Source: a virus. Taken from it: a DNA stretch of 64,000 nt. Positions 31,757-45,862 of the stretch are shown here, piece after piece. The stretch is from IMG/VR virus record IMGVR_UViG_3300022752_000021; one strand, given 5' to 3'. The position numbers and the translations under genes are program-made. Every line of letters begins with the position of its first letter. The stretch's first letter is position 1. The notes under the pieces are model-generated. The model made no database searches. It saw only the letters and a list, made by a program, of their open reading frames with translations, and was not told the DNA's origin.

Positions 31757-33448
31757 ATGGCACTACCAAATCCGAGTTCAACACCCCAAACAACACCACC
31801 AATCGACAATAGCATACGAGAAGCCATTTCGACAGGTATCAAGGCTGGATTGTTGACCACACAGAGCAGGATATTTTCTAAAGTTCCAAGAATTCTTGGC
31901 GGTGGTATTCTCGCAGAGAGAGCAGAAGAAAAACGACGAGAACTTTATGCACGTCAAGGTAGAGATGTTGTAACGGGAAGAAAACTCACCAAAGAAGAGA
32001 TCGAAGAACGAGAACGTCGTAAGATGTCGCAAGATGCGATGGGTGAGATCAATGAAAATGTTGATCTGATTCGCATACTACTTGAAAAGCATTTTGGTAA
32101 AGCACCAACTGGCACACTTCCTATGTTGGGGTTGGCAGGAATGCCAAAGATACTATCACCTAATAAGGGTACAACACCTTATGAGTTAGCAGATGAATCA
32201 GGTGGAGTAAATCTTGCTCAAGAAGAACAGCAGATAGAGCAACGGGAAGCAGACAAAGAAACACAACTTGAAGTTCAAGAAGAAAACCACGCATTCCTAG
32301 AGAAACTGTTTGAAAAATACTTCGGTGTTGCTAAAACAAACGAAGATGAAGCACAAACAAAAGAAAATCAGAGTATGCTTGGAAGCATATTCAGCAAAAT
32401 TGCTGGTGCTGTAGATTTTATTAGTGATGTAAAAACTCTTGGTGGAGCAAAACTTCTAAAGAAAATTCCTGGTGCTGCAAGGATTGGTCGTGTATTCGGT
32501 TTGGGTGCAGCAGCGACAACTGGTGCAGCAGCGACAACTGGTGCAGCAGCGACAACTGGTGCGGCGGCTACAGGCGCGGCAACGACAACTGGTGCAGCAA
32601 CGACAACTAGTGCGACGAAAGCGGGTGCAGCGGCTACAGGAGGAAAAGGATTCTTTGCAAGAATTGGCGGTTCTCTTGGCAAACTAACAGGTAGAGCAAT
32701 CGGTGCAGTGAGAAACGCGGGAGCGGGTTTGATGAAAATGGGTATTGGACCATTGGCTAAAAGCATTTTCGCTTTCTTGGGACCGATACTGACAGGTGTT
32801 TTTGGCGCAATGGATATTTCAAGCATAAAGCATGATTCGACACTATCTGATAAAGAAAAGAAAGAACAGATAGGACTCAAAATTGGTGGTATGATGACTT
32901 CCATGGGCGCACAAATTGCAGCAGCATTGATGGCACCTGGTGCTGGAAATGTTATTGTTGGCGCACTTGATGCTTTTGGTGTGGGACCACAAGCATTGGG
33001 TGAATGGCTAACATCCATGCTTGGCGGTGAGAAACTTTACGATTTTGCATCAGCAATACCTGGAATTAGTTCCTTACTAGAACTTCCCAAGGGAGTAGAT
33101 AGGGAAGGAACTCCAACTATGGAGCCAACACAGCAGAATGTTCCATCTGCTGAAGAGTATAACAAGTTTGGTATGAATACTGGAATGGAAACTCCAGCAA
33201 TAACTCCAACACAAGTAGCCGCCGCAGTTCCGAACATCACGCCAACATCCGCTGCAACATTAGGTAATCTTCAGGTGGAAAGTTCTGCTTTGAAGTCTGC
33301 GCCTCAAATAATGCCACCTGTTGTTGTTCCAACAAACAATGCGGTTGTGAACAACACCAACAATGTATCTTGGATGTCATCATTGACAGCAACAAGATCT
33401 GGTGCCGATCTTGATGAGAAGGTGTTCAAACTTGGTCTTGCATTCTGA
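31757..33448 (+). CDS. Putative tape-measure/hub protein (gp29-like position)
   Basis: 563 aa, helical and Ala/Gly-rich with hydrophobic segments; follows gp26-gp51. Confidence 0.55.
   Translation: MALPNPSSTPQTTPPIDNSIREAISTGIKAGLLTTQSRIFSKVPRILGGGILAERAEEKRRELYARQGRDVVTGRKLTKEEIEERERRKMSQDAMGEINENVDLIRILLEKHFGKAPTGTLPMLGLAGMPKILSPNKGTTPYELADESGGVNLAQEEQQIEQREADKETQLEVQEENHAFLEKLFEKYFGVAKTNEDEAQTKENQSMLGSIFSKIAGAVDFISDVKTLGGAKLLKKIPGAARIGRVFGLGAAATTGAAATTGAAATTGAAATGAATTTGAATTTSATKAGAAATGGKGFFARIGGSLGKLTGRAIGAVRNAGAGLMKMGIGPLAKSIFAFLGPILTGVFGAMDISSIKHDSTLSDKEKKEQIGLKIGGMMTSMGAQIAAALMAPGAGNVIVGALDAFGVGPQALGEWLTSMLGGEKLYDFASAIPGISSLLELPKGVDREGTPTMEPTQQNVPSAEEYNKFGMNTGMETPAITPTQVAAAVPNITPTSAATLGNLQVESSALKSAPQIMPPVVVPTNNAVVNNTNNVSWMSSLTATRSGADLDEKVFKLGLAF
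32504..32642 (+). repeat. 18-bp coding tandem repeat GGTGCAGCAGCGACAACT (GAAATT)
   Basis: Three exact copies at 32504-32557 followed by degenerate copies. Confidence 0.9.
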
Positions 33449-33848
33449 GTTTGTTGAATAGTTTCATATCAAACTCATGGATGCCATCATCCATCGTGTA
33501 GAAGATCTTATCGAAACACTTCACACACCAAGGCATACACTTGGGACATGGGCGCGAGATACGCATCTGTCCGTGGCTATTGAAACGAAAGTTCCATAGT
33601 TCAAGACCTTCGCGTTTGTCGCACTTCAGGAATGCATCAAGTTCTGAATGCACTTCGCCAAAAAGATATCCGTGTTTGACTGCAAGAGGGTGTGTCTTGA
33701 AACGGTTGACACCAACAGCAAGGATTCGATTCTTGTGCAGAATGACGCTGCAATGCTTCTTCCTACGAGGAATCTCAAGGCACTTTGCATAGGCAAAGTC
33801 GATCAACTTGCGGTGTTTTTCGGGATCTATCATAATAAAGATCTTCAT
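33426..33848 (-). CDS. Zn-dependent cytidine/dCMP-deaminase-superfamily protein
   Basis: H.SVI...RILAVGVN, HSE (HxE) and RPCPKC (PCxxC) motifs. Confidence 0.8.
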   Translation of the reverse strand: MKIFIMIDPEKHRKLIDFAYAKCLEIPRRKKHCSVILHKNRILAVGVNRFKTHPLAVKHGYLFGEVHSELDAFLKCDKREGLELWNFRFNSHGQMRISRPCPKCMPWCVKCFDKIFYTMDDGIHEFDMKLFNKLRMQDQV

Positions 33849-34154
33849 CCAATCCCGACACTCCTATTTATGGAGTTGTCAGAGATGCTTCTGAAAACAT
33901 TCTATTCGAATTCAAAAGAATGTTATTGTTGCTTTTGCGAGTGCTGCGAGGATCAACATCGTGAAGGTAAATATCGCTAGTACCTTGGCAACACCTAGTG
34001 CTATCATTGTCGAGTCATCATCGTCTTCCTGTTTCATATTCATAACCATACCTCCATATAATGTATGGGTCAAGCAACACCACAAATCAAATCTTTGAAT
34101 GATTTGTTTCTGAATCTATTCGTGCGAGATAAAAACATTCTTTCTCTCACTTCC

Positions 34155-34182
34155 TTGACTTCCCCAAAGTAGACGTTACTCT
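34155..34182 (+). promoter_or_regulatory. Sigma70-type early promoter
   Basis: TTGACT-16 bp-TACTCT at the start of the plus-strand accessory region. Confidence 0.5.
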
Positions 34183-34271
34183 TATGTCGATGAAGGTCAT
34201 GGTGTCCTTCGAAGCGCACTTGTTGAGGAAGGGAGTCCTCGACGTATAGATATAGGAAGATTGGTGGCTTT

Positions 34272-34538
34272 GTGAAGTTGTTCCGAATGCTCATAGATAC
34301 TGACTCCAACCCAGATGACGATGTCCCCATTGTCAAAGGAAAGGAGACTGGTATTATGGAGGAGAAGAACATGTTTGAAGGAGTTAGTGACTCTCGCAAG
34401 GAAGCAATGATCCACGATCTCATCCTAGTGGTGAAGTCGGCAATGACGAAAGTGAATGCAAGGGAACAACTTTGGTGCGACATCCTTGCTAAGACTGAAA
34501 ATGACATTCGCAGGGTCGTAAACGAAACGATCCGATGA
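34272..34538 (+). CDS. Hypothetical protein
   Basis: ORF in the plus-strand array; true start may be downstream (GGAG before ATG at about 34356). Confidence 0.5.
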   Translation: MKLFRMLIDTDSNPDDDVPIVKGKETGIMEEKNMFEGVSDSRKEAMIHDLILVVKSAMTKVNAREQLWCDILAKTENDIRRVVNETIR

Positions 34539-34549
34539 AGGAGTGAAAC

Positions 34550-34936
34550 ATGAAAATGGAATTCGATCACAAGTTCGTGGCAGCATTCAATACGTTTATG
34601 ACAAGTCTCAAGACGCTTGTCGAAACTTCGACCGCATCGGCTAGCACAGCAGACTACGAAGAAGGATACAAGTACATTCGCATCATTCTTGTTCGAACAG
34701 ATGCGGATGGTTCAAAAAAGAAGTCTGCGTGGGGATTCATCGACAAGCGAAGTGCCGACATTTTCCGCGCGGCAAGTTGGAAGGCTCCATGCCTCAATCA
34801 CATTCGCGGTAATCTTTACGACGATGACAATGGTCTGAAGCATTGCCATTGGACTGGTCCTGCGTACATATGGGCAATCAATGATTCCAAAAAGGAGGCA
34901 GTCGCGGCTCAACCCGCTCCCGAAGGAGGGATCTAA
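34550..34936 (+). CDS. Conserved T4-like phage hypothetical protein
   Basis: KYIRI...SAWGFIDK..DI..AASWKAP..HIRGNL pattern recalled from marine/freshwater myoviruses; GGAG RBS. Confidence 0.7.
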   Translation: MKMEFDHKFVAAFNTFMTSLKTLVETSTASASTADYEEGYKYIRIILVRTDADGSKKKSAWGFIDKRSADIFRAASWKAPCLNHIRGNLYDDDNGLKHCHWTGPAYIWAINDSKKEAVAAQPAPEGGI

Positions 34937-35205
34937 TGGGCTACAGACTGCACATCGACATTCCACTCAATCTCACCGAAGACGAGGCAATCAAGGACAG
35001 CCTTGCTATCATGTCTGCCATCGAAAACATTCTGTTGACGAACGTAAAAACTGAAGCCGATACTATCAACTATCGTCTTGGTCACGACGATGATCGTCAG
35101 AAGTCGAACTACCTCGACAAGAATGAGAATGGACACGTCAGCAACAAGAAGTCAAAGATTCTTGTGAAGAGAGAGTTGACAGCATCCGAAGGCACGATAG
35201 AGTAA
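34936..35205 (+). CDS. Hypothetical protein
   Basis: Coupled ORF with GGAGG RBS. Confidence 0.6.
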   Translation: MGYRLHIDIPLNLTEDEAIKDSLAIMSAIENILLTNVKTEADTINYRLGHDDDRQKSNYLDKNENGHVSNKKSKILVKRELTASEGTIE

Positions 35206-35616
35206 TCATGAGAGCGAAAGAAGACCATGATCAAACTCCCAGTGACAGTTGGGACAAAGCCCAACAATGTTCTTGGGATCATTAATTTCAGAAATAGTAG
35301 CGGTTTCAGGAAAGGCTTTGACGGGTTTGATATGACACATTTCGACATGCTTATCATAACCGCAGTTTTGGCATTTGGTTATGATTCCTTCGAATGCGTC
35401 TCTTGCATGATAGCGGATTTTGGCGTAACGATTGGATACATGACCTCTCTGATAAGTTGATTCTCCTTTGGTGGTGTTTAAACATGATTCTTTCAACTCT
35501 TTCTTGTTCAACTCCCCACAGGGCTTGCAATACTTGCGCCCCGATCCACACCACGCACCACACCGTTTGCACATAATCTTTCTTCTGTATTCTCTGTTAG
35601 TAGTTCGATTTGACAT
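35206..35616 (-). CDS. HNH endonuclease (free-standing, tRNA-adjacent; paralog 1)
   Basis: N-terminal CxxC zinc finger; C-terminal CQNCGYDKHVEMCHIKP...N...LCPNCHWEFDH. Confidence 0.88.
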   Translation of the reverse strand: MSNRTTNREYRRKIMCKRCGAWCGSGRKYCKPCGELNKKELKESCLNTTKGESTYQRGHVSNRYAKIRYHARDAFEGIITKCQNCGYDKHVEMCHIKPVKAFPETATISEINDPKNIVGLCPNCHWEFDHGLLSLS

Positions 35617-35617
35617 A

Positions 35618-35658
35618 TGAATCCCTCCTCAACTTATATATAAAACTGTTGGGATTCA
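35618..35658 (-). promoter_or_regulatory. RBS-sequestering hairpin with late-promoter-like TATATATA
   Basis: Minus strand TGAATCCC-AACAGTTT-TATATATA-AGTTGAGGA-GGGATTCA-T-ATG; the 8-bp inverted repeat overlaps the GAGGAGG SD. Confidence 0.7.
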
Positions 35659-35664
35659 AACAAC

Positions 35665-35735
35665 GCGCTGAGGGCGGACAGTTTCGCAGGCTCGCTTATA
35701 ACGAGTTCAAGCCAGGGCAGCACTGGATCGGCGTA
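35665..35735 (+). tRNA. Non-canonical tRNA-Ile(UAU)-like RNA
   Basis: Acceptor GCGCTGA/TCGGCGT+A; D-stem GCGG/TCGC; anticodon stem GGCTCG/CGAGTT with loop CT-TAT-AA; T-arm CCAG-GGCAGCA-CTGG lacking TTC. Confidence 0.65.
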
Positions 35736-35810
35736 TTTCTCAAACAGGCTCTTCGCACATGAGTCGCTGCGACAGAAGCCAAACAATCGCGACTCACAGG
35801 AGATTTTGCA

Positions 35811-36134
35811 ATGTTCGGACTTAGCAATAACAGTGTGTTCAAGTATGTCGGTGTTCTCTCTGCTCTCGTCTTCGTGTGGTTCACGTTCCTCTCACCAGAG
35901 AGCGCAAATGCAGCACAGAAGGCAAACTACGGTTTGATTGCCCTGTTTGCATCTCTTGCACTTTACTACTACTCGCAATTCACTCGCGAGCGTTCATTCC
36001 AAGAGAATGACAGTGTGTATCGTCGCATTGATGATGTTGAGCGTGAGTTCAACCTTCGCATCAATGAAGTTGAGCGTGAAGTCAACGAATGTGTTGATAG
36101 CAAGTGCGCTGATTCTTGCAAGCGCGGTCGCTGA
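35811..36134 (+). CDS. Membrane protein (two TM segments plus coiled coil)
   Basis: Two hydrophobic segments; AGGAG RBS. Confidence 0.7.
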   Translation: MFGLSNNSVFKYVGVLSALVFVWFTFLSPESANAAQKANYGLIALFASLALYYYSQFTRERSFQENDSVYRRIDDVEREFNLRINEVEREVNECVDSKCADSCKRGR

Positions 36135-36204
36135 TGATTGATGGTGTCCGTCTACCATGAGTGGCGGCAGAGGGTTCGCGCATTCTGCGAATAACGCGAT
36201 TTCG

Positions 36205-36696
36205 TTAGTGGTCTAGTTCCCAGTGACAATTCGGACAAAGAAATGCAATGTTTTTTCTGGAGTTGATCTCTGAAAGCAGAGTATCATCGCTAAAGGATGA
36301 TATTGGTTTTACATGACATAACTCCGTGTGTTTGTCATAGCCGCATTTTTCACAACAATCAGTTTTCCAACCAAACATAGTTGCAAGTCTTTTTCCGTGT
36401 TGCCTTATTTTTTCATATCGGTGCTTTGAGGCATAACTTGAAGAACTACCAACCGAATCTTTTTTTGTTGTCTTGTTTCCGTAGTCAACACAACGACTCT
36501 GTATAGAGCAAGACTTGCAATGTTTAGGTTTGTCAGACTTTTTTCTTCGTGAACACTTTTTACCACATATCACACACTTGTTTTGTGGTTCGGTGCTTCT
36601 TTTTGGAAAAACTTTATTGTTGTGTTTTGCCGCGCAAGATTTTGAGCAAAATTTAGGATTGTTTGTATGTTGTTGGCAGTTTAGACAAAGATTCAT
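36205..36696 (-). CDS. HNH endonuclease (paralog 2)
   Basis: Start at ATG 36696 (MNLCLNC, GGGGGA RBS); NPKFCSKSCAA; CEKCGYDKHTELCHVKP...LCPNCHWELDH. Confidence 0.88.
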   Translation of the reverse strand: MNLCLNCQQHTNNPKFCSKSCAAKHNNKVFPKRSTEPQNKCVICGKKCSRRKKSDKPKHCKSCSIQSRCVDYGNKTTKKDSVGSSSSYASKHRYEKIRQHGKRLATMFGWKTDCCEKCGYDKHTELCHVKPISSFSDDTLLSEINSRKNIAFLCPNCHWELDH

Positions 36697-36706
36697 GTTT
36701 TCCCCC

Positions 36707-36777
36707 GTGAGTATGATGTAACGGCAACATGCCACTCTTCCAAAGTGGCTTTACGGGTTCGAATCCCGTTACTCACA
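36707..36777 (+). tRNA. tRNA-Gly(UCC)
   Basis: GTGAGTA/TACTCAC acceptor; CCACT-CTTCCAA-AGTGG; ACGGG-TTCGAAT-CCCGT. Confidence 0.9.
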
Positions 36778-36799
36778 TTATATATAATAAGTTGGTAGA

Positions 36800-36822
36800 G
36801 GGTTCGAATCCCGTTACCCGCT
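36800..36822 (+). repeat. Duplicated 3' fragment of a tRNA-Gly (T-arm plus acceptor strand)
   Basis: GGGTTCGAATCCCGTTAC is identical to 36755-36772; the fragment continues CCGCT instead of TCACA. Confidence 0.8.
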
Positions 36823-36826
36823 TTTT

Positions 36827-36916
36827 GGACAGATGGCAGAGTGGTCTAATGCTGCGGTTTACTAAACCGCCGATGGTTCTAGAAACCATCCGAGGGTTCG
36901 AATCCTTCTCTGTCCG
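36827..36916 (+). tRNA. tRNA-Ser(ACU), type II
   Basis: GGACAGA/TCTGTCC+G73; GCGGT-TTACTAA-ACCGC; long variable arm GATGGTT..AACCATC; canonical T-loop. Confidence 0.85.
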
Positions 36917-36917
36917 T

Positions 36918-36988
36918 TGTCCGATTGTGTAACGGTAGCACAAGAGATTCTGGTTCTCTTTGTCCTAGTTCGAATCTAGGTCGGACAA
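36918..36988 (+). tRNA. tRNA-Gln(CUG)
   Basis: TGTCCGA/TCGGACA; AGAGA-TTCTGGT-TCTCT; CCTAG-TTCGAAT-CTAGG. Confidence 0.9.
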
Positions 36989-36991
36989 TTT

Positions 36992-37073
<82 letters not shown>

Positions 37074-37078
37074 CTCAA

Positions 37079-37150
37079 GCCGCCATAGTATAAAGGCTAT
37101 TACCGTTGATTTGTAATCATCAAATCTGAGTTCGATTCTCAGTGGTGGCT
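37079..37150 (+). tRNA. tRNA-Thr(UGU)
   Basis: GCCGCCA/TGGTGGC; loop TTTGTAA; CTGAG-TTCGATT-CTCAG. Confidence 0.85.
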
Positions 37151-37153
37151 TTC

Positions 37154-37227
37154 GGTCCTATCGTCTAGTTGGTCTAGGACAGGACACTTTCAATGTCCCA
37201 ACTGGGGTTCGAATCCCCATAGGATCA
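37154..37227 (+). tRNA. tRNA-Glu(UUC)
   Basis: GGTCCTA/TAGGATC; GGACA-CTTTCAA-TGTCC; TGGGG-TTCGAAT-CCCCA. Confidence 0.9.
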
Positions 37228-37234
37228 TTCTTCC

Positions 37235-37597
37235 ATGCCATGTTATGCAATCTCAATCCGTGAAGACAAGGAACACCTCCTGAGAGATGGGGGTGGTTTC
37301 TTGTTCTTCAAGAAAAAGAATCTCGCAATTCAAATGTGTGATTCAATGAATGCACTTCGTAAATCTATGAAGATTGATCAAGTGTATTCGATATGCAAGA
37401 TAGATGAAAAAGATTGGAAAGGCTTTCCAGTAATCTACGATCAGGAGTACGAAGATGACGCTACCGAGCGAGATGTTTCAGGCTATGCGAAACGCACGGC
37501 ACTTCATGCTGGCGTTGATGGATCCGAAGGAAACTCCAAAGGTTCCAAGAGAAATAAGAAAGCGAGCGAGGGATCGACTCAAGCACTTCCCTTCTGA
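37235..37597 (+). CDS. Hypothetical protein
   Basis: ORF after the tRNA cluster; C-terminal part overlaps the next gene. Confidence 0.45.
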   Translation: MPCYAISIREDKEHLLRDGGGFLFFKKKNLAIQMCDSMNALRKSMKIDQVYSICKIDEKDWKGFPVIYDQEYEDDATERDVSGYAKRTALHAGVDGSEGNSKGSKRNKKASEGSTQALPF

Positions 37598-37778
37598 ATA
37601 CGAAATCACCGAATTGGAAAAGATGTATTCATTCAAAGACAAGGATCCAAACATTCTTCTCAATGAGTGCATGAAGCGTCTTGACTCCATTCGCGGAGAA
37701 CTTACCATAGTGAACAAGAAGGTTGGTGATGTCGGCAACGGCATCGTTGAAGTAATTCAAAACTCAAGGAGTCAATGA
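37455..37778 (+). CDS. Conserved small phage protein (BPSL0761-like MT.P.E...P.VP..IR..A...L.HFP)
   Basis: Motif recognised by eye; AGGAG RBS. Confidence 0.65.
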   Translation: MTLPSEMFQAMRNARHFMLALMDPKETPKVPREIRKRARDRLKHFPSEYEITELEKMYSFKDKDPNILLNECMKRLDSIRGELTIVNKKVGDVGNGIVEVIQNSRSQ

Positions 37779-37779
37779 G

Positions 37780-38034
37780 ATGCCAAACAGTAAAGCAAAG
37801 AGTGTTGCGAGAAAGCATCGCAAAGCACGAAACCGTTGGAAGACCAAGAACCGTGAGAGTCTCACCCATGCAAAGGTGAAATCTCCACCAAAGAAGAAGC
37901 AATCTGTTTTTGAGCGAGCGAAAACATCCCCTCTGGCGGGGGCTTCCCCGTCAGCCGTATCTAACCCGTCAGAGGGGACTCCTCGCACCGCGTCAACGAT
38001 GTTGTTCACTGAACTCAAAGCAAAGGGTGGATGA
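37780..38034 (+). CDS. Basic hypothetical protein
   Basis: Lys/Arg-rich; AGGAG RBS. Confidence 0.55.
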   Translation: MPNSKAKSVARKHRKARNRWKTKNRESLTHAKVKSPPKKKQSVFERAKTSPLAGASPSAVSNPSEGTPRTASTMLFTELKAKGG

Positions 38035-38300
38035 AAATGGAAAAAACACAAATTGTCGAATCACTCCATCAAGGTGTTTGTGAAGTGGTGTTTACAAAAC
38101 AAGACGGCACGGAGCGTACACTTCGATGTACGCGATCTGCAAGCATTGCACCAATCACCAACACTAAAACCCTCCTCAATGAGGAGGGTGGTGGTCCAGA
38201 TGTGATCCCTGTGTGGGACATGGATTCTGCACAATGGCGATCATTCAATATGAACACCATCAAGTCATTCCGCAAGATTGGAACTACTTTGAATGGTTAA
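38031..38300 (+). CDS. SH3-like WYL_2/DUF2693-type protein
   Basis: L..GVC.V.FTK.DGTER.L.CT ... VWD.D...WRSF. Confidence 0.8.
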   Translation: MKMEKTQIVESLHQGVCEVVFTKQDGTERTLRCTRSASIAPITNTKTLLNEEGGGPDVIPVWDMDSAQWRSFNMNTIKSFRKIGTTLNG

Positions 38301-38311
38301 GTGAAAACACC

Positions 38312-38385
38312 GCCCCTCTAACTCAATTGGCAAGAGTAGCGGTCTTTTAAACCGCATTGTCTGGGTTCAAGTCCCAGGGGGGGCA
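38312..38385 (+). tRNA. tRNA-Lys(UUU)
   Basis: GCCCCTC/GGGGGGC; GCGGT-CTTTTAA-ACCGC; CTGGG-TTCAAGT-CCCAG. Confidence 0.92.
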
Positions 38386-38450
38386 TTGATGTGTGAATTT
38401 GGCGCGGTAGACTTTCTCGGATTCATAAATAAGCATGGAGGTTTGAATCC

Positions 38451-38813
38451 ATGCCATATAAAGATCCAGAACAAAAGAAGAAACATCGAAAAGCATACTA
38501 TGAACGGACAAAGGCGCAAGCACACGAATACTACCTAGAAAACAAACTCAAGTTTCGTGATAGAAATCGTGTGGCTAGAAGAAGAAATACCGAATTTGTC
38601 AATGAATACAAAGTAAAACACGGGTGTAGTAAATGCGGATACAAAGCCCATGCTTGTGGCATAGACTTTCATCACACGGAAAAGAAGAAAGAGAATGTAG
38701 CAAGAATGGCAAAATCATGCCTTTCGATAGAAAGTCTTTTGGGGGAGATGTCGAAATGTATTTTACTGTGTGCTACTTGTCACAGAGAAGAACATTACGC
38801 ACATAAATCGTAG
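38451..38813 (+). CDS. HNH endonuclease (distinct family) between tRNA-Lys and tRNA-Leu
   Basis: CSKCGY....IDFHH...K...E..KC.LLCATCHREEH; upstream GGATTCA-TAAATA...GGAGG-TGAATCC hairpin. Confidence 0.85.
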   Translation: MPYKDPEQKKKHRKAYYERTKAQAHEYYLENKLKFRDRNRVARRRNTEFVNEYKVKHGCSKCGYKAHACGIDFHHTEKKKENVARMAKSCLSIESLLGEMSKCILLCATCHREEHYAHKS

Positions 38814-38821
38814 AAAACTTC

Positions 38822-38904
38822 GCCAGCGTGGTGGAATGGCTTACACGGTTCACTCAAAATGAACTGATCGATAGATCATGCAGGTTCGAATCCTGTCGCT
38901 GGTA
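38822..38904 (+). tRNA. tRNA-Leu(CAA)
   Basis: GCCAGCG/CGCTGGT; GTTCA-CTCAAAA-TGAAC; variable arm TGATC..GATCA; TTCGAAT. Confidence 0.92.
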
Positions 38905-38906
38905 TT

Positions 38907-39170
38907 ATGAACAGAGAACGCTACATCGAACTAGAACGCACAGGTCAAGGACTAACCAAGGAAGAGTGGGAGCAGGGTTGGCATTGGTGCAACGAATGGG
39001 ATGGAATGCTTGTCGGTCCCAACACCGACGAAGCACTTGTCTGTTCTTGCAACCATCCTGCCATCGAAGCATGGAAGGAATCGGAAGAAGGTAAGAAGAT
39101 GCAGAAGGAACTTGACGAGCGATTCGAAAAACTCACCGAGAAAAACTTCTTGATGGAGGACGGCAAGTGA
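38907..39170 (+). CDS. Hypothetical protein (LT.EE...GWHWC.EWDG.L motif)
   Basis: ORF coupled to the next gene through a GTGA overlap. Confidence 0.65.
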   Translation: MNRERYIELERTGQGLTKEEWEQGWHWCNEWDGMLVGPNTDEALVCSCNHPAIEAWKESEEGKKMQKELDERFEKLTEKNFLMEDGK

Positions 39171-39541
39171 GCGACAAGAACTACGAACCAACCTATGAAG
39201 GTCAACTGGACAAGTGCCAAGACGAAAGACACGCACTGCAAATGCAACTTGAGGAATATCAGGAGTGCTTTGCAAATCTCCACAAGGAACACCATGAGTT
39301 GTGGGATGATTTTGAGCGTGTCACGAAGGAACGGGATGAGGCTCGTAGGAGAATCTGCGAAACCACCGACATGACCAACCCCAACGATGACTGCTATGTG
39401 CGATTGACTCCGAAGCAGATTGCAGAGCATTATGGTTGGGATTGCTACAAGAAGCCATATTGCTTTCGTGTAAACGGCGTTGTCGTTTCTAAGGGCAAGG
39501 CAGTCCCACCTAAGTTTGAACTTGGAGAGGATGACGAATGA
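39167..39541 (+). CDS. ERD.ARR..C / GWDC family protein (paralog)
   Basis: ERDEARRRIC...IAEHYGWDCYK. Confidence 0.7.
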   Translation: MSDKNYEPTYEGQLDKCQDERHALQMQLEEYQECFANLHKEHHELWDDFERVTKERDEARRRICETTDMTNPNDDCYVRLTPKQIAEHYGWDCYKKPYCFRVNGVVVSKGKAVPPKFELGEDDE

Positions 39542-39789
39542 GCGATGATATTGTGGCACGGTTGCGCTACTACACACAGGTAGATACGACAAGTCCTGTC
39601 TTTATAGTCAATGCCGATCTTCTCAAAGCCGCCGACGAGATCGAACGACTTCGCGCGGAACGCGACGAAGCGAGGCGCGAAGTGTGTCAAATGAAAGGAA
39701 CCGTCAGGTGGAATCATTATTTTCCACACTTTGATCCGAAGGGTTATGCGGAGAATCGCGGGTGGGATTGCCACAAGGATTACAAGTGA
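39538..39789 (+). CDS. ERD.ARR..C / GWDC family protein (paralog)
   Basis: DIVARL...AADEIERLRAERDEARREVC...AENRGWDCHK. Confidence 0.7.
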   Translation: MSDDIVARLRYYTQVDTTSPVFIVNADLLKAADEIERLRAERDEARREVCQMKGTVRWNHYFPHFDPKGYAENRGWDCHKDYK

Positions 39790-40112
39790 ACTACGACAAT
39801 GTGACCAACGACAAGTATCTTGGCGAATACTTGGACATTCATCGTGCATTCGGCAGACCCAAGATCGTTGATGAGATGATCCAATCACGATTCGATTACG
39901 ATCCTTTCTTGCGGGATGCAATCTATACCGCTGCATTGCAGATCGAAAAAGTTTGGAAAGAGGAAGAAGTTCGCGAGTTCGTGCTGCGTATGTCGTGGCA
40001 CATCATGCACCTTGAGGAAACACTCAAGCGAAACAACATCACCCACGAACCATACCGAAGTTACTACAACATGCCAAATGAAGAGGAAGCACATAATGAA
40101 ACCAAAGATTAG
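39786..40112 (+). CDS. Hypothetical protein
   Basis: GTG start overlapping the previous TGA. Confidence 0.6.
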   Translation: MNYDNVTNDKYLGEYLDIHRAFGRPKIVDEMIQSRFDYDPFLRDAIYTAALQIEKVWKEEEVREFVLRMSWHIMHLEETLKRNNITHEPYRSYYNMPNEEEAHNETKD

Positions 40113-40295
40113 ACATACTCTTTATGTTGTGACCATAACAATTCTCACAACAACACTTTTTATGGTGAAGTGTCAAGGGAATTTGTGGGCGCATCAGATT
40201 CGTCCCATTCCCACAGAATCCGAAAAAGTGCGTCCACCAGGAGAAGGTGTCAAACTTGGAACAGGAAAGAATATGCATTACAGGATGAACACACA

Positions 40296-40925
40296 ATGAA
40301 GACACTAATCGCAGCAGCATTTATCACAACGGCAGCACACGGAACTGGGACGCTCTGCACCTTTGAGAACCTTCCTGCTCCAACAACTCCTAGTATGAGT
40401 TCCGCTACCACGGGATTCTATTGGGATTACCTCTCCTCATATGAGGGATTCCACTTCACAAGTTCATCCTCCCAAGGCAACTTTCAATGGGGATACTACG
40501 ATCTCGTTGGTGGTGGGGGATACGCAGGATACGATGAGGGAATCATCGGGGATCGTGCTTTGTTTACCCCGTGGGGTTCTGAGCAGAACAAGAACTACCG
40601 CATTCGTCGTGATGATCTTTGGATTCTCAACAGCATTGAAGTCACATCAGTTTGGAATTCGACCGCAGTAGTTATAGAGGGATACCGATACGGAGAGGGT
40701 GTGTTTACTTATACTACACAACTCACAGCAGCACAGCGGGTAAAACTAAACATCTCCTCTGGATATCCTGGTCCGCTTAACAACATTACAGAGATCAAAA
40801 TCTACACCAATACATTTAGTTCTCATCTCGCTATCGACAATCTCAACTACACGGTGGTTCCTGCACCATCGGCACTTGCCCTGCTTGCGATTGCTGGTAT
40901 TTCAACTAATCGACGGAGGAAGTAA
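40296..40925 (+). CDS. Exported protein with PEP-CTERM-type (VPAP) sorting signal
   Basis: Signal peptide MKTLIAAAFITTAAHG; C-terminus VVPAPSALALLAIAGISTNRRRK (motif, TM helix, Arg cluster). Confidence 0.85.
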   Translation: MKTLIAAAFITTAAHGTGTLCTFENLPAPTTPSMSSATTGFYWDYLSSYEGFHFTSSSSQGNFQWGYYDLVGGGGYAGYDEGIIGDRALFTPWGSEQNKNYRIRRDDLWILNSIEVTSVWNSTAVVIEGYRYGEGVFTYTTQLTAAQRVKLNISSGYPGPLNNITEIKIYTNTFSSHLAIDNLNYTVVPAPSALALLAIAGISTNRRRK

Positions 40926-41027
40926 AATGCTTGATCTCATAACCATTGGTTTCTTTATTATCGCCTTCGTATTTGTCTTAGTAGATCTTCGTTTGCGCCG
41001 ACTTGAAAGTAAACAGGGAAAGTAGAA

Positions 41028-41414
41028 ATGATGAAACTCGCAACAATTTTAGCATCCGCTTGTGTTGGAATCGTGGCAGAACCACCGATCCTTCCTTTCA
41101 CAGAAATCAGTGATCAAAAACTCATGACCATGATGCAACACATGGTTGCGGCAGATGAAATCACAACCCAAGATTTCAATGTTGCTCTTCAACTTGAGCA
41201 TATTCGGTGGAAGTATACCGAAATGCGGACTATATTCTACGACACAGCAAAACAATCAGCGGATGGGTCTGTGATCTTCACAAAGGATCTAGGTAAGATC
41301 TTTGATGCCATTGATACTGATTTGGAGAAGCAACGCGAAAAGGCTCTTCAAGAAATTAAGAAGCGTAAGAATGAACAAGAGCAAAAGAAAACTCCTGTTG
41401 GGAATGAAGTATGA
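41028..41414 (+). CDS. Hypothetical protein with possible signal peptide
   Basis: Hydrophobic N-terminus. Confidence 0.55.
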   Translation: MMKLATILASACVGIVAEPPILPFTEISDQKLMTMMQHMVAADEITTQDFNVALQLEHIRWKYTEMRTIFYDTAKQSADGSVIFTKDLGKIFDAIDTDLEKQREKALQEIKKRKNEQEQKKTPVGNEV

Positions 41415-41579
41415 AAGACATTGCCTATGAACTTCGCGTTCTGAGCAAGAGGCAAGATCTGCCACCGGATGTAATTCGTACAATTTCAGAGGCGTATGCT
41501 GAGATTGTGGAACTTCGCAGTCAAGTAAGCAAATACGCTCTGGAAGCGATCACTCGTTTCGATGAAGAGAATGGGCTTA

Positions 41580-41587
41580 TATAAATA
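41580..41587 (+). promoter_or_regulatory. T4 late promoter TATAAATA
   Basis: Exact consensus 23 nt upstream of the ATG at 41611. Confidence 0.8.
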
Positions 41588-41610
41588 CCTCCATACAGGA
41601 GGACTTTTCC

Positions 41611-42144
41611 ATGAAGTCGTATAGAGAGTTCATTTCAGAGGCAGCAAGCCGTTCCCTTTCCCGTCTACACGGTCATATTCAGAGTGGTCATATGGTGGGT
41701 TTCATCTCAGCAAGCCGTGGGAATCTTTCTCCTGCCGAGAATAATAAGAGGACGAAGGAACTCAGGACAAGCCTCAAGCAGCATGGATATAGTCCCATCC
41801 CTGTAAAGGGTGAGTACATCGAAGACCACAATGGAGAGAAGAAGAAGGTGAAGGAGAAGACCTTCATGATTCACTCTGGTCAACTACCCCTCCGCTCAAA
41901 GAAGGCAGTAGAAGATCATGCAACGCTTCTTAGTGATCTCAAGAAGCATGGGGAGAAGTATGGTCAGGACACTGTTCTCACCGTCTCCAAGAAGCATGGC
42001 AGCGTGTTCCATGGAACTGGCAAGTCTGATTGGGTTCCAAAGGGTAAGAGAGCGCGTATCGGTGGTGCTGGTATCAGTACCAATGTTGGTGACTTCAATA
42101 CACGATTGAAGCGCAAGAAGTTCATAGTAGGTGGAGGTGCTTAA
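41611..42144 (+). CDS. Putative internal head protein with capsid-targeting sequence
   Basis: N-terminus MKSYREFISEA; late promoter; ISASRG...EN..RT..L...L...GY..V.G.Y.E body conserved in T4-like phages. Confidence 0.75.
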   Translation: MKSYREFISEAASRSLSRLHGHIQSGHMVGFISASRGNLSPAENNKRTKELRTSLKQHGYSPIPVKGEYIEDHNGEKKKVKEKTFMIHSGQLPLRSKKAVEDHATLLSDLKKHGEKYGQDTVLTVSKKHGSVFHGTGKSDWVPKGKRARIGGAGISTNVGDFNTRLKRKKFIVGGGA

Positions 42145-42409
42145 TGAGTGGTTTTTTTTCGAAATGGATAGAGAGTTACTTTCAAGGAAAGCGCATATTC
42201 GACAAGAGTCTATTTCGCATGACTGCGAATGAACGAATTGCGAAATATGGAATTGATAAGGTTGCTGAACTTCAAACTATGAGTCCAGCAAAGAGAGTCG
42301 AGATCTACGGAGAGGATTTTGAACAATATCTCTCCTCTGCCAAGAACGCATAAGATTCAGAATCAAATAAACGAAAGTAAGATTCTTTTCGATTCGCGTT
42401 CAAAGAGTA

Positions 42410-42437
42410 TTGACAGCAGAAGATTCCGCGATATACT
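42410..42437 (+). promoter_or_regulatory. Sigma70-type early promoter
   Basis: TTGACA-16 bp-TATACT. Confidence 0.7.
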
Positions 42438-42525
42438 TGTAGCACAACAGTTGAGGAACGCACGGGACTGCGGTGCGAACTCCTCTTTCAAAAGTGAAGC
42501 AGTCAATGTTTAGGAGTGTATAGTT

Positions 42526-42819
42526 ATGGCAACTGCAACCAAGACTCGTTCGACCCGTCCGCTCACCAAGACCCGTCAGGTCATCAATCATCTCCGTTCA
42601 GGTAAGCCAATCACCGCGGATCGCGCACTCAACAAGTTTGGTGTGAAGAACCTTCGTGCGATGATTTCTAGCATTCGCGAAGAGTTTGAGAAGTACGGCA
42701 ACTGGCAAATCACGACAACTCAGAACAACCGTGGTGAGACTGTCTACAACATGATCGACACTCACCCTGGTCAGCGCGTCTACGGCTTTGACGCTCAAGG
42801 CAATCGCTTCCGTCTTTGA
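42526..42819 (+). CDS. Winged-helix DNA-binding protein
   Basis: V.NHL.SG..IT...A...FGV.NLRA.IS.IR HTH pattern; AGGAG RBS. Confidence 0.75.
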   Translation: MATATKTRSTRPLTKTRQVINHLRSGKPITADRALNKFGVKNLRAMISSIREEFEKYGNWQITTTQNNRGETVYNMIDTHPGQRVYGFDAQGNRFRL

Positions 42820-42891
42820 CTAAGACAGTTGCGTGATTGACTAGACAATCACATCGGTGTTTGAATTCAGAATATTATTATTTGTCCGCGT

Positions 42892-42989
42892 GGGAACGGC
42901 AGTCGGGGTCAGCGGATGCTCCGATACTAGAAGTCTAGATCTAGACTAGAACGACGGCAGGGGGTAACTCCCCCTGCCGTTCCCTTTTT
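42892..42989 (+). ncRNA. Structured element ending in an intrinsic terminator, with a competing 5' antiterminator-like arm
   Basis: ACGGCAGGGGG-TAACT-CCCCCTGCCGT followed by TCCCTTTTT; GGGAACGGCAG (42892) is fully complementary to CTGCCGTTCCC (42974-42984). Confidence 0.5.
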
Positions 42990-43002
42990 ATGGAGAGACT
43001 GC

Positions 43003-43140
43003 ATGGAAAACAGACGGCACAGCGCAGGAAAGGGTGATTCGTATCGCCCCGTAGATCAGAAGAAGTGGGCAGAGAATTGGGACAGAATCTTCGGTAAGAA
43101 GAAATCGAAGAGAAAGACCTCCCCCAAGAAGCCGAAGTAG
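43003..43140 (+). CDS. Small conserved phage protein (GKGD..RP...NWDRIF)
   Basis: 45-aa ORF translated manually; GGAG RBS. Confidence 0.65.
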   Translation: MENRRHSAGKGDSYRPVDQKKWAENWDRIFGKKKSKRKTSPKKPK

Positions 43141-43146
43141 AATCCT

Positions 43147-43605
43147 TCATTTCGGGTGATCGAACAGCCAATGGCAATTTGGGCATAAAATAAGCAGATT
43201 TTCGTCTGCGTTTATTTCCGACAACATTGTCTTTGGATCAAACTCTGATATTGGTTTTCGATGACAAACCTCAACATGCTTATCCCAACCACACTGCTCA
43301 CAAGATTTTGTTTTTGTGGCTTTTGGGGTTGCTCTTGCTCTGCTTCTAACCAGAGCATATGCAGAGGATCGGTGATGTTTTGTGTATATGGCTTCTTCTA
43401 AAGTCATATCTTTCATAAATCTGTTTTCCACAAAGCATTTTTTGCAGTATTTTCTACTGCTACGCAACGGACATCCGCACGAATGACAACTTCCTTCAAC
43501 CGCTCTTTTGATGTGTATCTTATTGTTGGTTGAAGCGGCACATGAACGAGAACAAAACTTTGGATTGTTTGTTTCTTTTCCACAAGCGATACAAATCTTT
43601 GACAT
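43147..43605 (-). CDS. HNH endonuclease (paralog 3)
   Basis: Start at ATG 43605 (MSKICIACG); NPKFCSRSCAA; CEQCGWDKHVEVCHRKP...LCPNCHWLFDH. Confidence 0.88.
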   Translation of the reverse strand: MSKICIACGKETNNPKFCSRSCAASTNNKIHIKRAVEGSCHSCGCPLRSSRKYCKKCFVENRFMKDMTLEEAIYTKHHRSSAYALVRSRARATPKATKTKSCEQCGWDKHVEVCHRKPISEFDPKTMLSEINADENLLILCPNCHWLFDHPK

Positions 43606-43656
43606 GAGACGAACCTCCGTTAGACTACATATATAGTCGAAACGAAAGTTCAACTC
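43606..43656 (-). promoter_or_regulatory. RBS-sequestering hairpin with late-promoter-like TATATATG at the apex
   Basis: Minus strand GAACTTTCGTT pairs with AACGGAGGTTC (11 bp including GU; covers GGAGG); inner GACTA/TAGTC stem. Confidence 0.75.
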
Positions 43657-43663
43657 ACAAATT

Positions 43664-43739
43664 GCCCGTGTACCGGCACCGCCTTCTAAGCGGTAGAACC
43701 GTAACTGGATCGATGCAGGTTCGACCCCTGCCACGGGTG
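43664..43739 (+). tRNA. D-arm-less tRNA-Arg(UCU)-like RNA
   Basis: GCCCGTG/CACGGGT+G; only 7 nt before ACCGC-CTTCTAA-GCGGT; 20-nt variable region; GCAGG-TTCGACC-CCTGC. Confidence 0.65.
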
Positions 43740-43742
43740 CTT

Positions 43743-43925
43743 ATGGCAGACATTCAACAACTCATAGATCGACTGCAAACTGCAAGAGACGAAGTTAGTA
43801 ATCCCCGCGCAAAGATGCATGAATACACAAGCGAGGATCTTGAAACTCTCTTGGTTGATGTCATCTTCGCCCTTCAAGAGAAGACAGAAATTCATTTTGA
43901 GAACTTGACTCAAGGAGCCGATTGA
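43743..43925 (+). CDS. Hypothetical protein
   Basis: ATG immediately after the tRNA-like gene. Confidence 0.5.
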   Translation: MADIQQLIDRLQTARDEVSNPRAKMHEYTSEDLETLLVDVIFALQEKTEIHFENLTQGAD

Positions 43926-43926
43926 A

Positions 43927-44199
43927 ATGTCCACAATGAAGACTCTCAACTCTCGCTATGGCGACTCTCGTAAGATCACAGACAATGGTCATGGTGTGTG
44001 GACCATCGAAGGAAAAGCACATTACTACCGCGTTGGAATGAATGGTGACAACACAAAGATCGGATACTTCGATCCTGAAGGTGGACCATTCATTTCTGTT
44101 GGTAGCGACTATGGTTTCGGCAAGATTGGCGAAATCATCGTTGAAAATACTGAAGAGGGCAACTTCAAAATTCGTGTTGAAGTTGATGATTCGAATTGA
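43927..44199 (+). CDS. Conserved phage hypothetical protein (SRYG..R...DP.GGPFI.VG)
   Basis: Motif recognised by eye; AGGAG RBS. Confidence 0.65.
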   Translation: MSTMKTLNSRYGDSRKITDNGHGVWTIEGKAHYYRVGMNGDNTKIGYFDPEGGPFISVGSDYGFGKIGEIIVENTEEGNFKIRVEVDDSN

Positions 44200-44316
44200 C
44201 ACTATTGGCGTTCTGACGAAAACGCGGTCTTGACAAGAGATGCTCTTGCGTAAAACGGTCTGTACTAGTAATCGACCGACAAAGTAAGGTAGATGGTGTA
44301 ATCCATCATAGTGTCA
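44197..44316 (+). ncRNA. 120-nt multi-hairpin RNA with tRNA-like closure
   Basis: TGACACTAT/ATAGTGTCA closing stem; internal hairpins GCGTT/AACGC, CAAGAG/CTCTTG, CGGTC/GACCG, GATGG/CCATC. Confidence 0.55.
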
Positions 44317-44342
44317 TCATTCATAGGTCGAGTGAATCGACC

Positions 44343-44375
44343 ACAAGAGGCTTGCAAAAGCCTCTTGTTTTGTTT
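44343..44375 (+). terminator. Rho-independent terminator
   Basis: ACAAGAGGCTT-GCAA-AAGCCTCTTGT-TTTGTTT. Confidence 0.85.
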
Positions 44376-44408
44376 CAGAACTCTAAATATTCATAGGAGG
44401 ACTGAAAC

Positions 44409-44645
44409 ATGGCAAAAAATCTCAACAAGAAGTCCGCTAGAGAAGCAGATGAATATTTTCTATGCACACATGTGAACTCCGAAGGCTATCAATATGAACT
44501 TTTGCTCACCAAGAGCGAGTTTGATAATGGAGTTGCGCGAGCATTACGCAATCCCGAAGACATTCCTGTGAATTTCATAGTGTTGCAAGGTATCAAGGAC
44601 GAAACGAAGTACCCTTGCCCATGTCGCAAAGACGACAAATTGTGA
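44409..44645 (+). CDS. Hypothetical late protein
   Basis: TCTAAATA late-promoter variant and AGGAGG RBS upstream. Confidence 0.65.
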   Translation: MAKNLNKKSAREADEYFLCTHVNSEGYQYELLLTKSEFDNGVARALRNPEDIPVNFIVLQGIKDETKYPCPCRKDDKL

Positions 44646-44765
44646 AATTTCAAGTGTAAAATGCATATTTGAGCGAAAAAAATCAGTTTTTGGTCATTTT
44701 TCCGAACTATTCGGAAAGAATTTTCACTTTTTTTGGTTTTTTCGCCCATCAGACTCATTAGGGGC

Positions 44766-44793
44766 TTGCATTCTGACGATTTACTGTCATACT
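44766..44793 (+). promoter_or_regulatory. Sigma70-type early promoter (probable leaderless transcript)
   Basis: TTGCAT-16 bp-CATACT, ATG at +7; preceded by A/T tracts. Confidence 0.55.
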
Positions 44794-44799
44794 ACCTAC

Positions 44800-45072
44800 A
44801 TGAGCAACTTCCAAGGTGACATCGAACTTGAACGTCTCGCAAACGATTCCATGCAGGATTGGGGCGATGACTTCGACCCCGAAACCGTGGAGCAAGTGGA
44901 GCAACACGTCATGGAGGAGCATGACGAAGCGCAACGCGATTACCCCGAACGATTCAATTCGCGCGAAGAATGGGATGCCTACAACGAAGAATGCGACCGC
45001 CACGATCTTGAACGGGCGCATCTCAAGGGTAATGACATCGACTTCGGTGATCTTTTCGATCTTTCCTTTTGA
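44800..45072 (+). CDS. Acidic early protein
   Basis: Asp/Glu-rich, 90 aa. Confidence 0.65.
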   Translation: MSNFQGDIELERLANDSMQDWGDDFDPETVEQVEQHVMEEHDEAQRDYPERFNSREEWDAYNEECDRHDLERAHLKGNDIDFGDLFDLSF

Positions 45073-45097
45073 GAATCCAAACACAGGAGTTTTCACC

Positions 45098-45403
45098 ATG
45101 AGCAAGACCAAGACTGCAAAGAAGTCCGTCCGCACCAAGGTTTCCGTCAAGGTGACGAAGACCGCAGAGCCGTCGCTGATTTTCGACAAGCCAGGTCCAC
45201 AGACTCACACACGCGAACAGGCAGACGCACGAATTCGTGATCTTCGCGCGAAGGTGAGCAAGATGTACGCAGACGGAAAGTTCAAGTCTTCGATGGCTAT
45301 GACCGTTCCGCTCACACACATCGACAATGCAACCTACTACAAAATGTGCGGATGTTTTGACCGCGCGATTGACATCTGCGACAACTGTGATTCGAATCTC
45401 TGA
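45098..45403 (+). CDS. Hypothetical early protein
   Basis: AGGAG RBS before MSKTKTAKK. Confidence 0.65.
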   Translation: MSKTKTAKKSVRTKVSVKVTKTAEPSLIFDKPGPQTHTREQADARIRDLRAKVSKMYADGKFKSSMAMTVPLTHIDNATYYKMCGCFDRAIDICDNCDSNL

Positions 45404-45424
45404 ACAAACAAGGAGAAACACACA

Positions 45425-45862
45425 ATGAACAACGAGAACAACAACATCACAATCGAAATGCAGCACCCCGAACTCGACCTCGACATTGTGGATCGTTTGC
45501 TTACCAAACCTCCACTACACATCCTCACGAACATGGATCTCGTAAAGGCAGCGGACGAGATCCGTGTTCTTCGCGCAATGCAGACTGCGTATCAGATTGA
45601 GATTCAGAAAATCTTTGAGGAGAATACCAAACTCAAGGGCGAGGCAAAGGAACTCCACAATATGGTGGATGATCTTTCGGGTTGGGTTGCAGGGGTCGAA
45701 GCGGACAACGATACGCTCCGCAAGGACATTGCTCGACTCAAGGAAGAGCGTGATTTGGCACGGCGTGAGATTTGCCGATGGGAGGCATCCGCCACGGGTA
45801 AGCGAATCACGGAATGTGCCAAGTTGAACGAATGGGACTGCTTCAAGGAGGAATCCAAGTGA
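45425..45862 (+). CDS. ERD.ARR..C / WDC family protein (paralog)
   Basis: DIVDRL...AADEIRVLR...ERDLARREIC...EWDCFKEESK. Confidence 0.7.
   Translation: MNNENNNITIEMQHPELDLDIVDRLLTKPPLHILTNMDLVKAADEIRVLRAMQTAYQIEIQKIFEENTKLKGEAKELHNMVDDLSGWVAGVEADNDTLRKDIARLKEERDLARREICRWEASATGKRITECAKLNEWDCFKEESK

Follow-up and report, generated by a model that had tools for sequence, protein, structure and literature searches.

Three related HNH-type endonuclease genes in a 64,000-nt stretch of viral DNA (IMG/VR record IMGVR_UViG_3300022752_000021; "the window" below means this whole stretch) raise the question of why each begins beside the 5' end of a tRNA gene, and why two of the three partner RNAs do not look like ordinary tRNAs. 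The original prediction for this DNA held that ORFs at 35206, 36205 and 43147 run antisense to the surrounding genes and share an HNH motif, and that they form tRNA-targeted homing cassettes with their own tRNA variants. The first idea was confirmed, and comparison of the window with related viral contigs gave good support to the second. The ORFs, which we designated HNH1, HNH2 and HNH3, were all present on the minus strand with the shared motif, in a region where from position 28753 on nearly all genes lie on the plus strand, and the proposal of homing cassettes was supported by nuclease presence or absence at fixed sites, by canonical tRNA alleles in a relative designated G001, and by a disrupted tRNA-Gly gene. 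We consider it likely that HNH1, HNH2 and HNH3 are homing endonuclease cassettes, each consisting of a nuclease gene, a control region and a replacement tRNA; that the nucleases cut the DNA of tRNA genes is what we infer.

HNH nuclease genes and their tRNA partners

A megablast search of GenBank phages with positions 33000–46000 returned no match, and relatives of the window were taken from IMG/VR, where a scan with the three proteins yielded 248 relatives and scans with HNH2 alone and HNH3 alone added closer ones. The three proteins are mutually 42–43% identical, with 40 invariant columns. Against the Pfam HNH_2 family of beta-beta-alpha-metal nucleases (PF13391, cut-off 21 bits) HNH1 and HNH3 scored 40.8 and 30.0 bits, respectively, and HNH2, equally similar to both of them, scored just below the cut-off at 19.6 bits; in these nucleases Pfam found only domains of HNH type and no GIY-YIG domain. 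Among 24 homologs, residues C102, C105, C141, C144, N132 and N136 were invariant and H110, H115 and H145 were at least 90% conserved, hallmarks of HNH_2 in which we see the two zinc CxxC pairs, the conserved Asn, and both the catalytic and the last His. HNH3 was modelled confidently by AlphaFold (pLDDT 88), with a strand-strand-helix C-terminal domain, and the best Foldseek matches of the model were all HNH nucleases, with weak scores (E-values of at least 0.1); a profile search of solved structures gave just a weak match to the HNH of McrA (E-value 0.048). Neither structure search went further than the Pfam result. For HNH2 and HNH3 the mechanical ORF list runs upstream through antisense tRNA sequence, and the probable starts are ATG 36696 (GGGGGA upstream) and ATG 43605 (GGAGG upstream), respectively, both following a purine-rich ribosome-binding site. 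All three are ORFs of their own in intergenic positions, outside any intron or intein. Judged by these comparisons they are three lineages of one free-standing HNH family; recent duplication within this genome was rejected as their origin, as in a tree each joins homologs from other contigs.

HNH1 starts 48 nt, HNH2 10 nt and HNH3 58 nt away from the 5' end of its tRNA, in agreement with the predicted 10–60 nt. Such closeness also turned out to be a property of the family. Among 88 distinct homologs in viral contigs, with tRNAs called by ARAGORN, a tRNA lay within 100 nt in 48, within 200 nt in 61 and within 1 kb in 73, so that adjacency was enriched relative to a control gene, the AAA ATPase of the same phage (48533–49792), for which none of the 71 copies scored had a tRNA within 200 nt or within 300 nt, and two had one within 1 kb. 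This control is clean at 300 nt or less and imperfect at 3 kb, where 27 of 71 copies have a tRNA because a tRNA-Arg(CCU) lies ~2 kb away in this phage group. Nuclease loci had 0.75 tRNAs per kb, versus a comparison density of 0.085 per kb. The prediction had specified divergent adjacency, and this part must be divided: the adjacency stood, whereas the head-to-head arrangement failed as a rule for the family, co-directional and convergent arrangements being equally common. Within each shallow clade of the homolog tree, partner and spacing are fixed. Homologs of the HNH2 clade (L101–L103) always have one tRNA-Gly sequence type 7–14 nt away, the same type as the tRNA-Gly beside HNH2 in the window; those of the HNH1 clade have tRNA-Ile(UAU) at 35–68 nt; and those of the HNH3 clade have the rewired tRNA-Arg described below at 49–63 nt, invariably divergent. 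Two HNH_2 paralogs, each beside a different tRNA, also share a tRNA cluster in L101 (3001–3486 and ~3710 onward) and in L089 (1369–1800 and ~3472 onward), so that having several cassettes does not set the window apart.

Comparison of aligned alleles shows exact junctions and a tRNA stub at HNH2, presence and absence of nucleases at fixed sites, an identity island and a decayed nuclease remnant. At HNH2, we noted that a conserved sequence ending TTTCGT or GTTCAT leads directly to position 1 of tRNA-Gly in the related loci L001 and L272, and that in the window the same conserved sequence leads directly to position 36205, where the HNH2 stop codon lies. The right-hand side of HNH2 has first an intact tRNA-Gly, whose acceptor stem differs and is compensated, then a TATATATA palindrome, and finally a 24-nt stub identical to L272:985–1008, i.e., to the last 23 nt of the intact tRNA-Gly plus the next base. 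Given the left edge at position 1 and the stub on the right, ~595 nt comprising the nuclease, the replacement tRNA-Gly and the palindrome therefore took the place of resident positions 1–48. In L101 a comparable T-arm stub of different sequence stands after the HNH2-linked Gly gene. The polarity shows that a formerly intact tRNA gene received the insertion. No tRNA stub was found alongside the 3' end of HNH3.

The original prediction had also called for a comparison with HNH-minus alleles, and this revealed presence or absence at fixed sites, together with canonical tRNA-Ile and tRNA-Arg genes in G001 where the nucleases are missing. The window holds HNH1, HNH2, HNH3 and a fourth, unrelated nuclease gene, HNH4. 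One related contig (loci L001, L081 and L154) has HNH1 (93% amino acid identity) and HNH3 (74%) and lacks HNH2 and HNH4, the distance from the small ORF to tRNA-Gly being 75 nt versus 572 nt in the window, and tRNA-Lys and tRNA-Leu lying 2 nt apart at the HNH4 site. The other, G001 (loci L272 and L285), has in this region only HNH4 of the four (98% amino acid identity), so that three relatives have three nuclease sets. In the place of HNH1, G001 has 17 nt between the upstream ORF and a canonical tRNA-Ile(UAU) with T-loop TTCGAAT and GG in the D-loop. It also lacks HNH2 and HNH3, and its HNH3 slot is occupied by a canonical tRNA-Arg(UCU) behind its own promoter (TTGACA-17-TAAAAT), homology with the window restarting at the T-arm and 3' flank. 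HNH4 lies inside a 1.1-kb island with 95–96% DNA identity between window 38401–39541 and L272:2951–4381, which spans HNH4, tRNA-Leu and ~600 nt downstream, is flanked by sequence of 73–84% identity, and looks like a recent co-conversion tract. For HNH1 and its tRNA the identity was 81–85% versus 38–78% on the left flank, and for HNH3 the same identity comparison gave no clear island. Among contigs with the Arg-like RNA, L157 differs from L120 by a clean 510-nt insertion ending at the tRNA 5' end, L122 has ~800 nt more than L143, and in L147 the nuclease is reduced to a mutated, internally deleted C-terminal remnant. Presence, absence and remnant alleles are what one would expect to see as a homing endonuclease gene passes through its life cycle.

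The regions between nuclease and tRNA (Table 1) were conserved as well. The HNH1 control motif is kept in L001 and L006, and all nine of the nine HNH3-bearing alleles that we inspected have TTGACAT on the plus strand, its CAT being the start codon of the nuclease. It is followed by a 16–17-nt spacer with the nuclease ribosome-binding site on the other strand, as in the spacer of the promoter at 43599–43626, which contains that of HNH3, then by TATACT, TATAAT or TAGACT within a short palindrome, and then by the tRNA. Because an inverted nuclease gene blocks upstream read-through to the tRNA, the cassette would itself provide a promoter for the tRNA that it carries. The TATATATA palindrome occurs twice in the 64 kb (0.32 expected), at the HNH1 and HNH2 junctions; it was rejected as a general promoter of the phage, being confined to these two cassette junctions. 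At its end, the ORF upstream of HNH1 has a further near-consensus promoter-like site (TTGACA-16-TAGAGT, window 35176–35203, plus strand), from which transcription would run antisense into HNH1.

Table 1. Features of the three proposed cassettes and of HNH4 in the window
Feature	Coordinates	Strand	Description
HNH1	35206–35616	-	HNH_2-family endonuclease gene, 136 aa; ORF, Pfam PF13391
Divergent control region	35610–35642	+	TTGACA overlapping HNH1 start codon, then palindromic TATATATA
Variant tRNA-Ile(UAU)	35665–35735	+	Cloverleaf, T-loop GGCAGCA, 4-nt D-loop without GG; from fold
HNH2	36205–36696	-	HNH_2-family endonuclease gene, 163 aa
Replacement tRNA-Gly(UCC)	36707–36777	+	Canonical fold; ARAGORN, Rfam 64 bits
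Second TATATATA palindrome	36779–36786	.	Just 3' of replacement tRNA-Gly; also after the HNH2-linked Gly of L101
Resident tRNA-Gly 3' stub	36800–36823	+	24 nt: T-arm and 3' acceptor strand
HNH4	38451–38813	+	Unrelated HNH endonuclease gene between tRNA-Lys and tRNA-Leu; PHROG 3106, E-value 2e-22
HNH3	43147–43605	-	HNH_2-family endonuclease gene, 152 aa
Sigma-70-type promoter toward tRNA	43599–43626	+	Promoter scan, 10/12 matches; -35 TTGACA overlaps HNH3 start codon
Rewired tRNA-Arg(UCU)	43664–43739	+	Lacks the D hairpin; the other three arms (acceptor, anticodon, T) are intact

Two non-canonical tRNA families

Of the three partner RNAs, only the Gly gene was called by ARAGORN and Rfam, and the other two are conserved, which bears out the prediction that two of the three are non-canonical. 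The Ile-like RNA gave no ARAGORN call and no Rfam match; the Arg-like RNA gave no ARAGORN call and no match to RF00005, its score against tRNA-Sec being 25 bits (E-value 0.16). We found the Arg-like family in 49 viral contigs (40 distinct sequences) and in five isolated phages. In an alignment of 43 sequences, 95.6% of the cells in the acceptor, anticodon and T stems were paired, with 232 double-change cells versus 63 ± 8 in shuffled alignments; double changes occurred in 19 of 20 pairs, and the observed values were reached in 0 of 500 shuffles. In the Ile family double changes occurred in 8 of 21 pairs, and in the alignment the relatives keep the fold. As features of a functional tRNA we scored compensated acceptor, anticodon and T stems, a 7-nt anticodon loop with U33, and CCA or the discriminator; CCA is encoded by many members of the Arg family. 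Scored in this way, the Ile-like and Arg-like RNAs are real tRNA families that have kept functional tRNA features, and we predict that they are charged and used in translation. The idea that the odd RNAs are decaying pseudogenes was rejected on the strength of the compensatory changes and the encoded CCA ends.

The architecture of the Arg-like RNA is unusual in that just 7 nt stand at the place of the D-arm, and a conserved 20-nt segment with UAAUUGGA follows directly after the anticodon arm. In our proposal the 5' linker would pair, by its CGG, with the CCG just before UAAUUGGA; the post-anticodon segment would then serve as a displaced D-loop, and its GGA would resemble G18, G19 and A20 of tRNA-Arg. 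This CGG:CCG pairing varies only in Salmonella phage SSBI34 (CUC with GAG) and partly in Alishewanella phage Slicko01, the search pattern having fixed these bases elsewhere. An earlier suggestion for this RNA, a CCGG:CTGG pairing, is less well supported still: one of its pairs was mismatched six times, and double changes were absent.

When the 76-nt Arg-like RNA of the window was used in a blastn search at an E-value of 1e-3 nothing was found, and a commoner member of the family used at an E-value of 1 identified the five isolated phages. The rewired tRNA-Arg is unannotated in Agrobacterium phage Atu_ph04 (L187), Stenotrophomonas phage SOVA965 (L190), Limnohabitans phage DC31 (L191) and SSBI34 (L189), and is labelled tRNA-Ser in Slicko01 (L188). 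In SOVA965, DC31 and SSBI34 it has, no more than ~30 nt away, an HNH gene belonging to another family. We found no paper on this tRNA-Arg architecture in phages; PMC11551756 describes every known bacterial tRNA as canonical, and the review PMC7609411 does not mention phages.

Codon usage suggests that the phage would have a use for these genes. In its large genes AGA accounts for 37% of Arg codons, AUA for 30% of Ile codons and GGA for 35% of Gly codons, and ARAGORN called no other Arg-UCU or Ile-UAU gene in the window; the carried tRNAs are therefore probably needed by the phage. Since standard tRNA finders miss genes such as these, phage tRNA repertoires are undercounted.

Proposed homing cassettes and the competing explanations

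It is established that phage tRNA clusters can harbour homing endonucleases, e.g., SegB of T4 and F-Tfl of T5. SegB cuts tRNA genes at a T-loop motif and mobilises the T4 tRNA region (PMC2330249); for SegB of T4 and T6 cleavage in tRNA genes has been demonstrated, and the family as a whole is linked to tRNAs (PMC2330249, PMC13096335). Like HNH1–HNH3, T4 SegB is encoded by a free-standing gene inside a phage tRNA cluster and is missing from close relatives; it moves itself and the tRNA genes at its flanks, recognises the conserved T-loop of tRNA genes, and belongs to a family statistically linked to tRNAs. It differs in having a GIY-YIG fold in place of HNH_2, so the window's nucleases would be SegB-like in action and not members of the SegB family; nor has a deviant replacement tRNA or a promoter overlapping the start codon been reported for SegB, unlike the cassettes here, and its activity is demonstrated whereas that of HNH1–HNH3 is inferred. 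Three HNH endonucleases are encoded in the T5 tRNA region (PMC3326045), and these enzymes (F-Tfl) resemble those of the window in being site-specific, in lying among phage tRNA genes and in being variably present in T5-like phages. A tblastn search with HNH3 at an E-value of 1e-3 matched no T5 record, and the T5 enzymes are therefore at best distant relatives. A true homolog is ORF44 of Salmonella phage FelixO1, annotated as an HNH endonuclease and 36% identical to HNH3 (E-value 2e-12), which lies between tRNA-Lys and tRNA-Ile in a tRNA cluster; unlike HNH1–HNH3 it is co-directional with the tRNAs, and its neighbours are annotated as ordinary tRNAs.

We picture the cassettes as follows. A minus-strand nuclease gene, a short AT-rich palindromic control region and a plus-strand tRNA gene would form one unit, the control region of the HNH1 and HNH3 cassettes having a putative sigma-70-type promoter with its -35 element over the nuclease start codon. 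During a mixed infection the nuclease would cut the tRNA locus of a cassette-free related phage, and repair from the cassette-bearing genome would copy the nuclease gene and its tRNA over the resident tRNA gene. The carried tRNA would preserve decoding of the heavily used AGA, AUA and GGA codons and would evade the nuclease through sufficient differences in sequence or architecture. Later decay or deletion could remove the nuclease gene and leave the variant tRNA on its own.

One competing explanation is that the nucleases are domesticated, like SegB of T6, and are kept because tRNA genes are amplified or exchanged after breaks in their region, which would help the phage to evade tRNA-cutting host defences; those defences, and not the nuclease, would then be what the odd tRNA shapes are adapted to. 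In its favour, SegB evades Septu by amplifying tRNA-Tyr and shows a wide association with tRNAs (PMC13096335), the variant tRNAs are also found where there is no nuclease, and one genome has kept three intact paralogs. Against this, no tandem amplification is visible in the window, and presence or absence among close relatives together with a decayed copy look like selfish turnover. We regard domestication as unlikely to be the main explanation, and in any case it does not exclude homing.

Another possibility is that selfish nucleases gather wherever insertions between small, independently processed genes are tolerated, with no recognition of tRNA genes, so that the neighbouring tRNAs are bystanders. 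Such a view would accommodate the divergent, co-directional and convergent orientations seen among homologs, the several unrelated HNH families that share these clusters, and the recurrence of Arg-UCU, Ile-UAU, Gly-UCC and Met as partners among these loci; these four are common phage tRNAs generally. It does not fit the constancy of spacing and partner per lineage across contigs that are otherwise mosaic, or the HNH2 cassette, which lies within a tRNA gene and has left a stub of it, not between genes. At the Ile and Arg slots, moreover, the resident tRNA was replaced and not merely displaced, and within the same loci the adjacent tRNAs are enriched for T-loop variants. We therefore judge indifference to tRNA genes to be quite unlikely. 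The speculative option of the original prediction, that the odd RNAs are functional partners of the nucleases (which they would bind or guide, or by which they would be processed), is highly improbable: it has in its favour the tight physical linkage and the tRNA promoter that overlaps the nuclease start codon, but both RNA families occur mostly with no nuclease nearby, which excludes an obligatory partnership, close relatives are in the nuclease-free state, the tRNA-Gly among the partners is an ordinary one, HNH_2 nucleases act on DNA, and the RNAs keep anticodon loops, acceptor stems and often an encoded CCA, as working tRNAs would.

Returning to homing, we asked how far the carried tRNAs could be nuclease-resistant variants. 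This is plausible: where the window has variant Ile and Arg genes, G001, which lacks the nucleases there, has canonical ones, and SegB recognises the T-loop motif of tRNA genes (PMC2330249), which makes escape through the T-loop plausible. Many tRNAs next to HNH_2 genes, e.g., at L011:2797–2872, L052:2850–2923 and L029:3418–3491, have normal cloverleaves with TTCGAAT replaced in the T-loop by, e.g., ATCGTAC, TTGGAAT or TGCAATT. For Arg-UCU, 10 of 19 sequences near nucleases are without the conserved T-loop motif TTCRA versus 1 of 22 elsewhere. Over all anticodons, TTCRA was missing from 23 of the 84 distinct tRNA sequences within 150 nt of an HNH_2 gene versus 41 of 507 elsewhere (Fisher p 2.7e-6; anticodon-stratified odds ratio 0.25); the motif is lacking roughly four times as often beside the nucleases, which would be in keeping with nuclease-resistant variants. 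The count leaves out the odd tRNAs missed by ARAGORN and is therefore conservative.

A number of points weigh against homing by resistant cassettes. The T-loop contrast just given is one of distinct sequences and not of independent events, with shared ancestry uncorrected. An HNH1 relative (L006) adjoins an Ile gene with a canonical T-loop, a member of the HNH3 clade (L011) adjoins an Arg gene with a canonical D-arm, and the tRNA-Gly of HNH2 is itself canonical, the same type being present in G001 without HNH2. A nuclease lies within 800 nt of only ~14–17 of 50 Arg genes, and HNH1 lies beside 3 of ~17 variant Ile genes (those of the window, L154 and L165); the variant tRNAs are therefore independent of the nuclease, and may be older. 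Both related contigs are ~73–80% identical to the window DNA, and part of the differences could accordingly come from ordinary recombination. The target site of HNH1–HNH3 is putative, as is cleavage by every member of the family.

More broadly, we tentatively suggest, while regarding it as rather doubtful, that homing endonucleases directed against canonical tRNA genes drive the appearance of non-cloverleaf or elbow-altered phage tRNAs as nuclease-immune replacement alleles, fixed by gene drive and not by translational advantage. A spreading cassette would have to carry a tRNA that still decodes and lacks the DNA recognition site of the nuclease, and the immune alleles would include the rewired tRNA-Arg(UCU), the tRNA-Ile(UAU) without a T-psi-C loop and the T-loop-mutant tRNAs near HNH genes. 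If the carried tRNAs are immune, the presence of structurally deviant tRNAs in bacterial translation would have a concrete and testable evolutionary explanation, and the cassettes would link nuclease gene drive to deviant tRNA architecture. What is new relative to the known systems is a nuclease gene packaged with a promoter and a replacement tRNA that overwrites the resident gene, with three such putative cassettes in one genome carrying three different tRNAs: a canonical Gly, an Ile with a deviating T-loop and an Arg without a D hairpin. The matched alleles (canonical tRNA without nuclease, variant tRNA with nuclease, and variant tRNA with a decayed nuclease gene) are ready substrates for cleavage assays.

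The surrounding tRNA cluster

The window is part of a T4-like myovirus, as judged from a Gp5 OB baseplate hub and a T4 tail-tube cap protein. Its structural genes are on the minus strand up to 28.7 kb, and a long run of small plus-strand genes follows. An ORF at window 41611–42144, kept beside the tRNA cluster in L001, matches an S-adenosylmethionine lyase family (PF23780, E-value 2.8e-14) and is likely to encode an anti-restriction enzyme that degrades S-adenosylmethionine. The tRNA cluster is, as far as the compared contigs indicate, mosaic down to single tRNA genes. Between Gly and Tyr (window 36917–36989 vs L272:1088–1255) the tRNAs vary among relatives, with Ser-ACU and Gln-CUG in the window, Ser-GGA and Asn in G001, and nothing in L001. 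The tRNA-Ser at window 36826–36917, identified by ARAGORN and Rfam (51 bits), has the anticodon ACU (A34), which is unusual for the AGY box, and a Ser(act) gene is present in L106 too.

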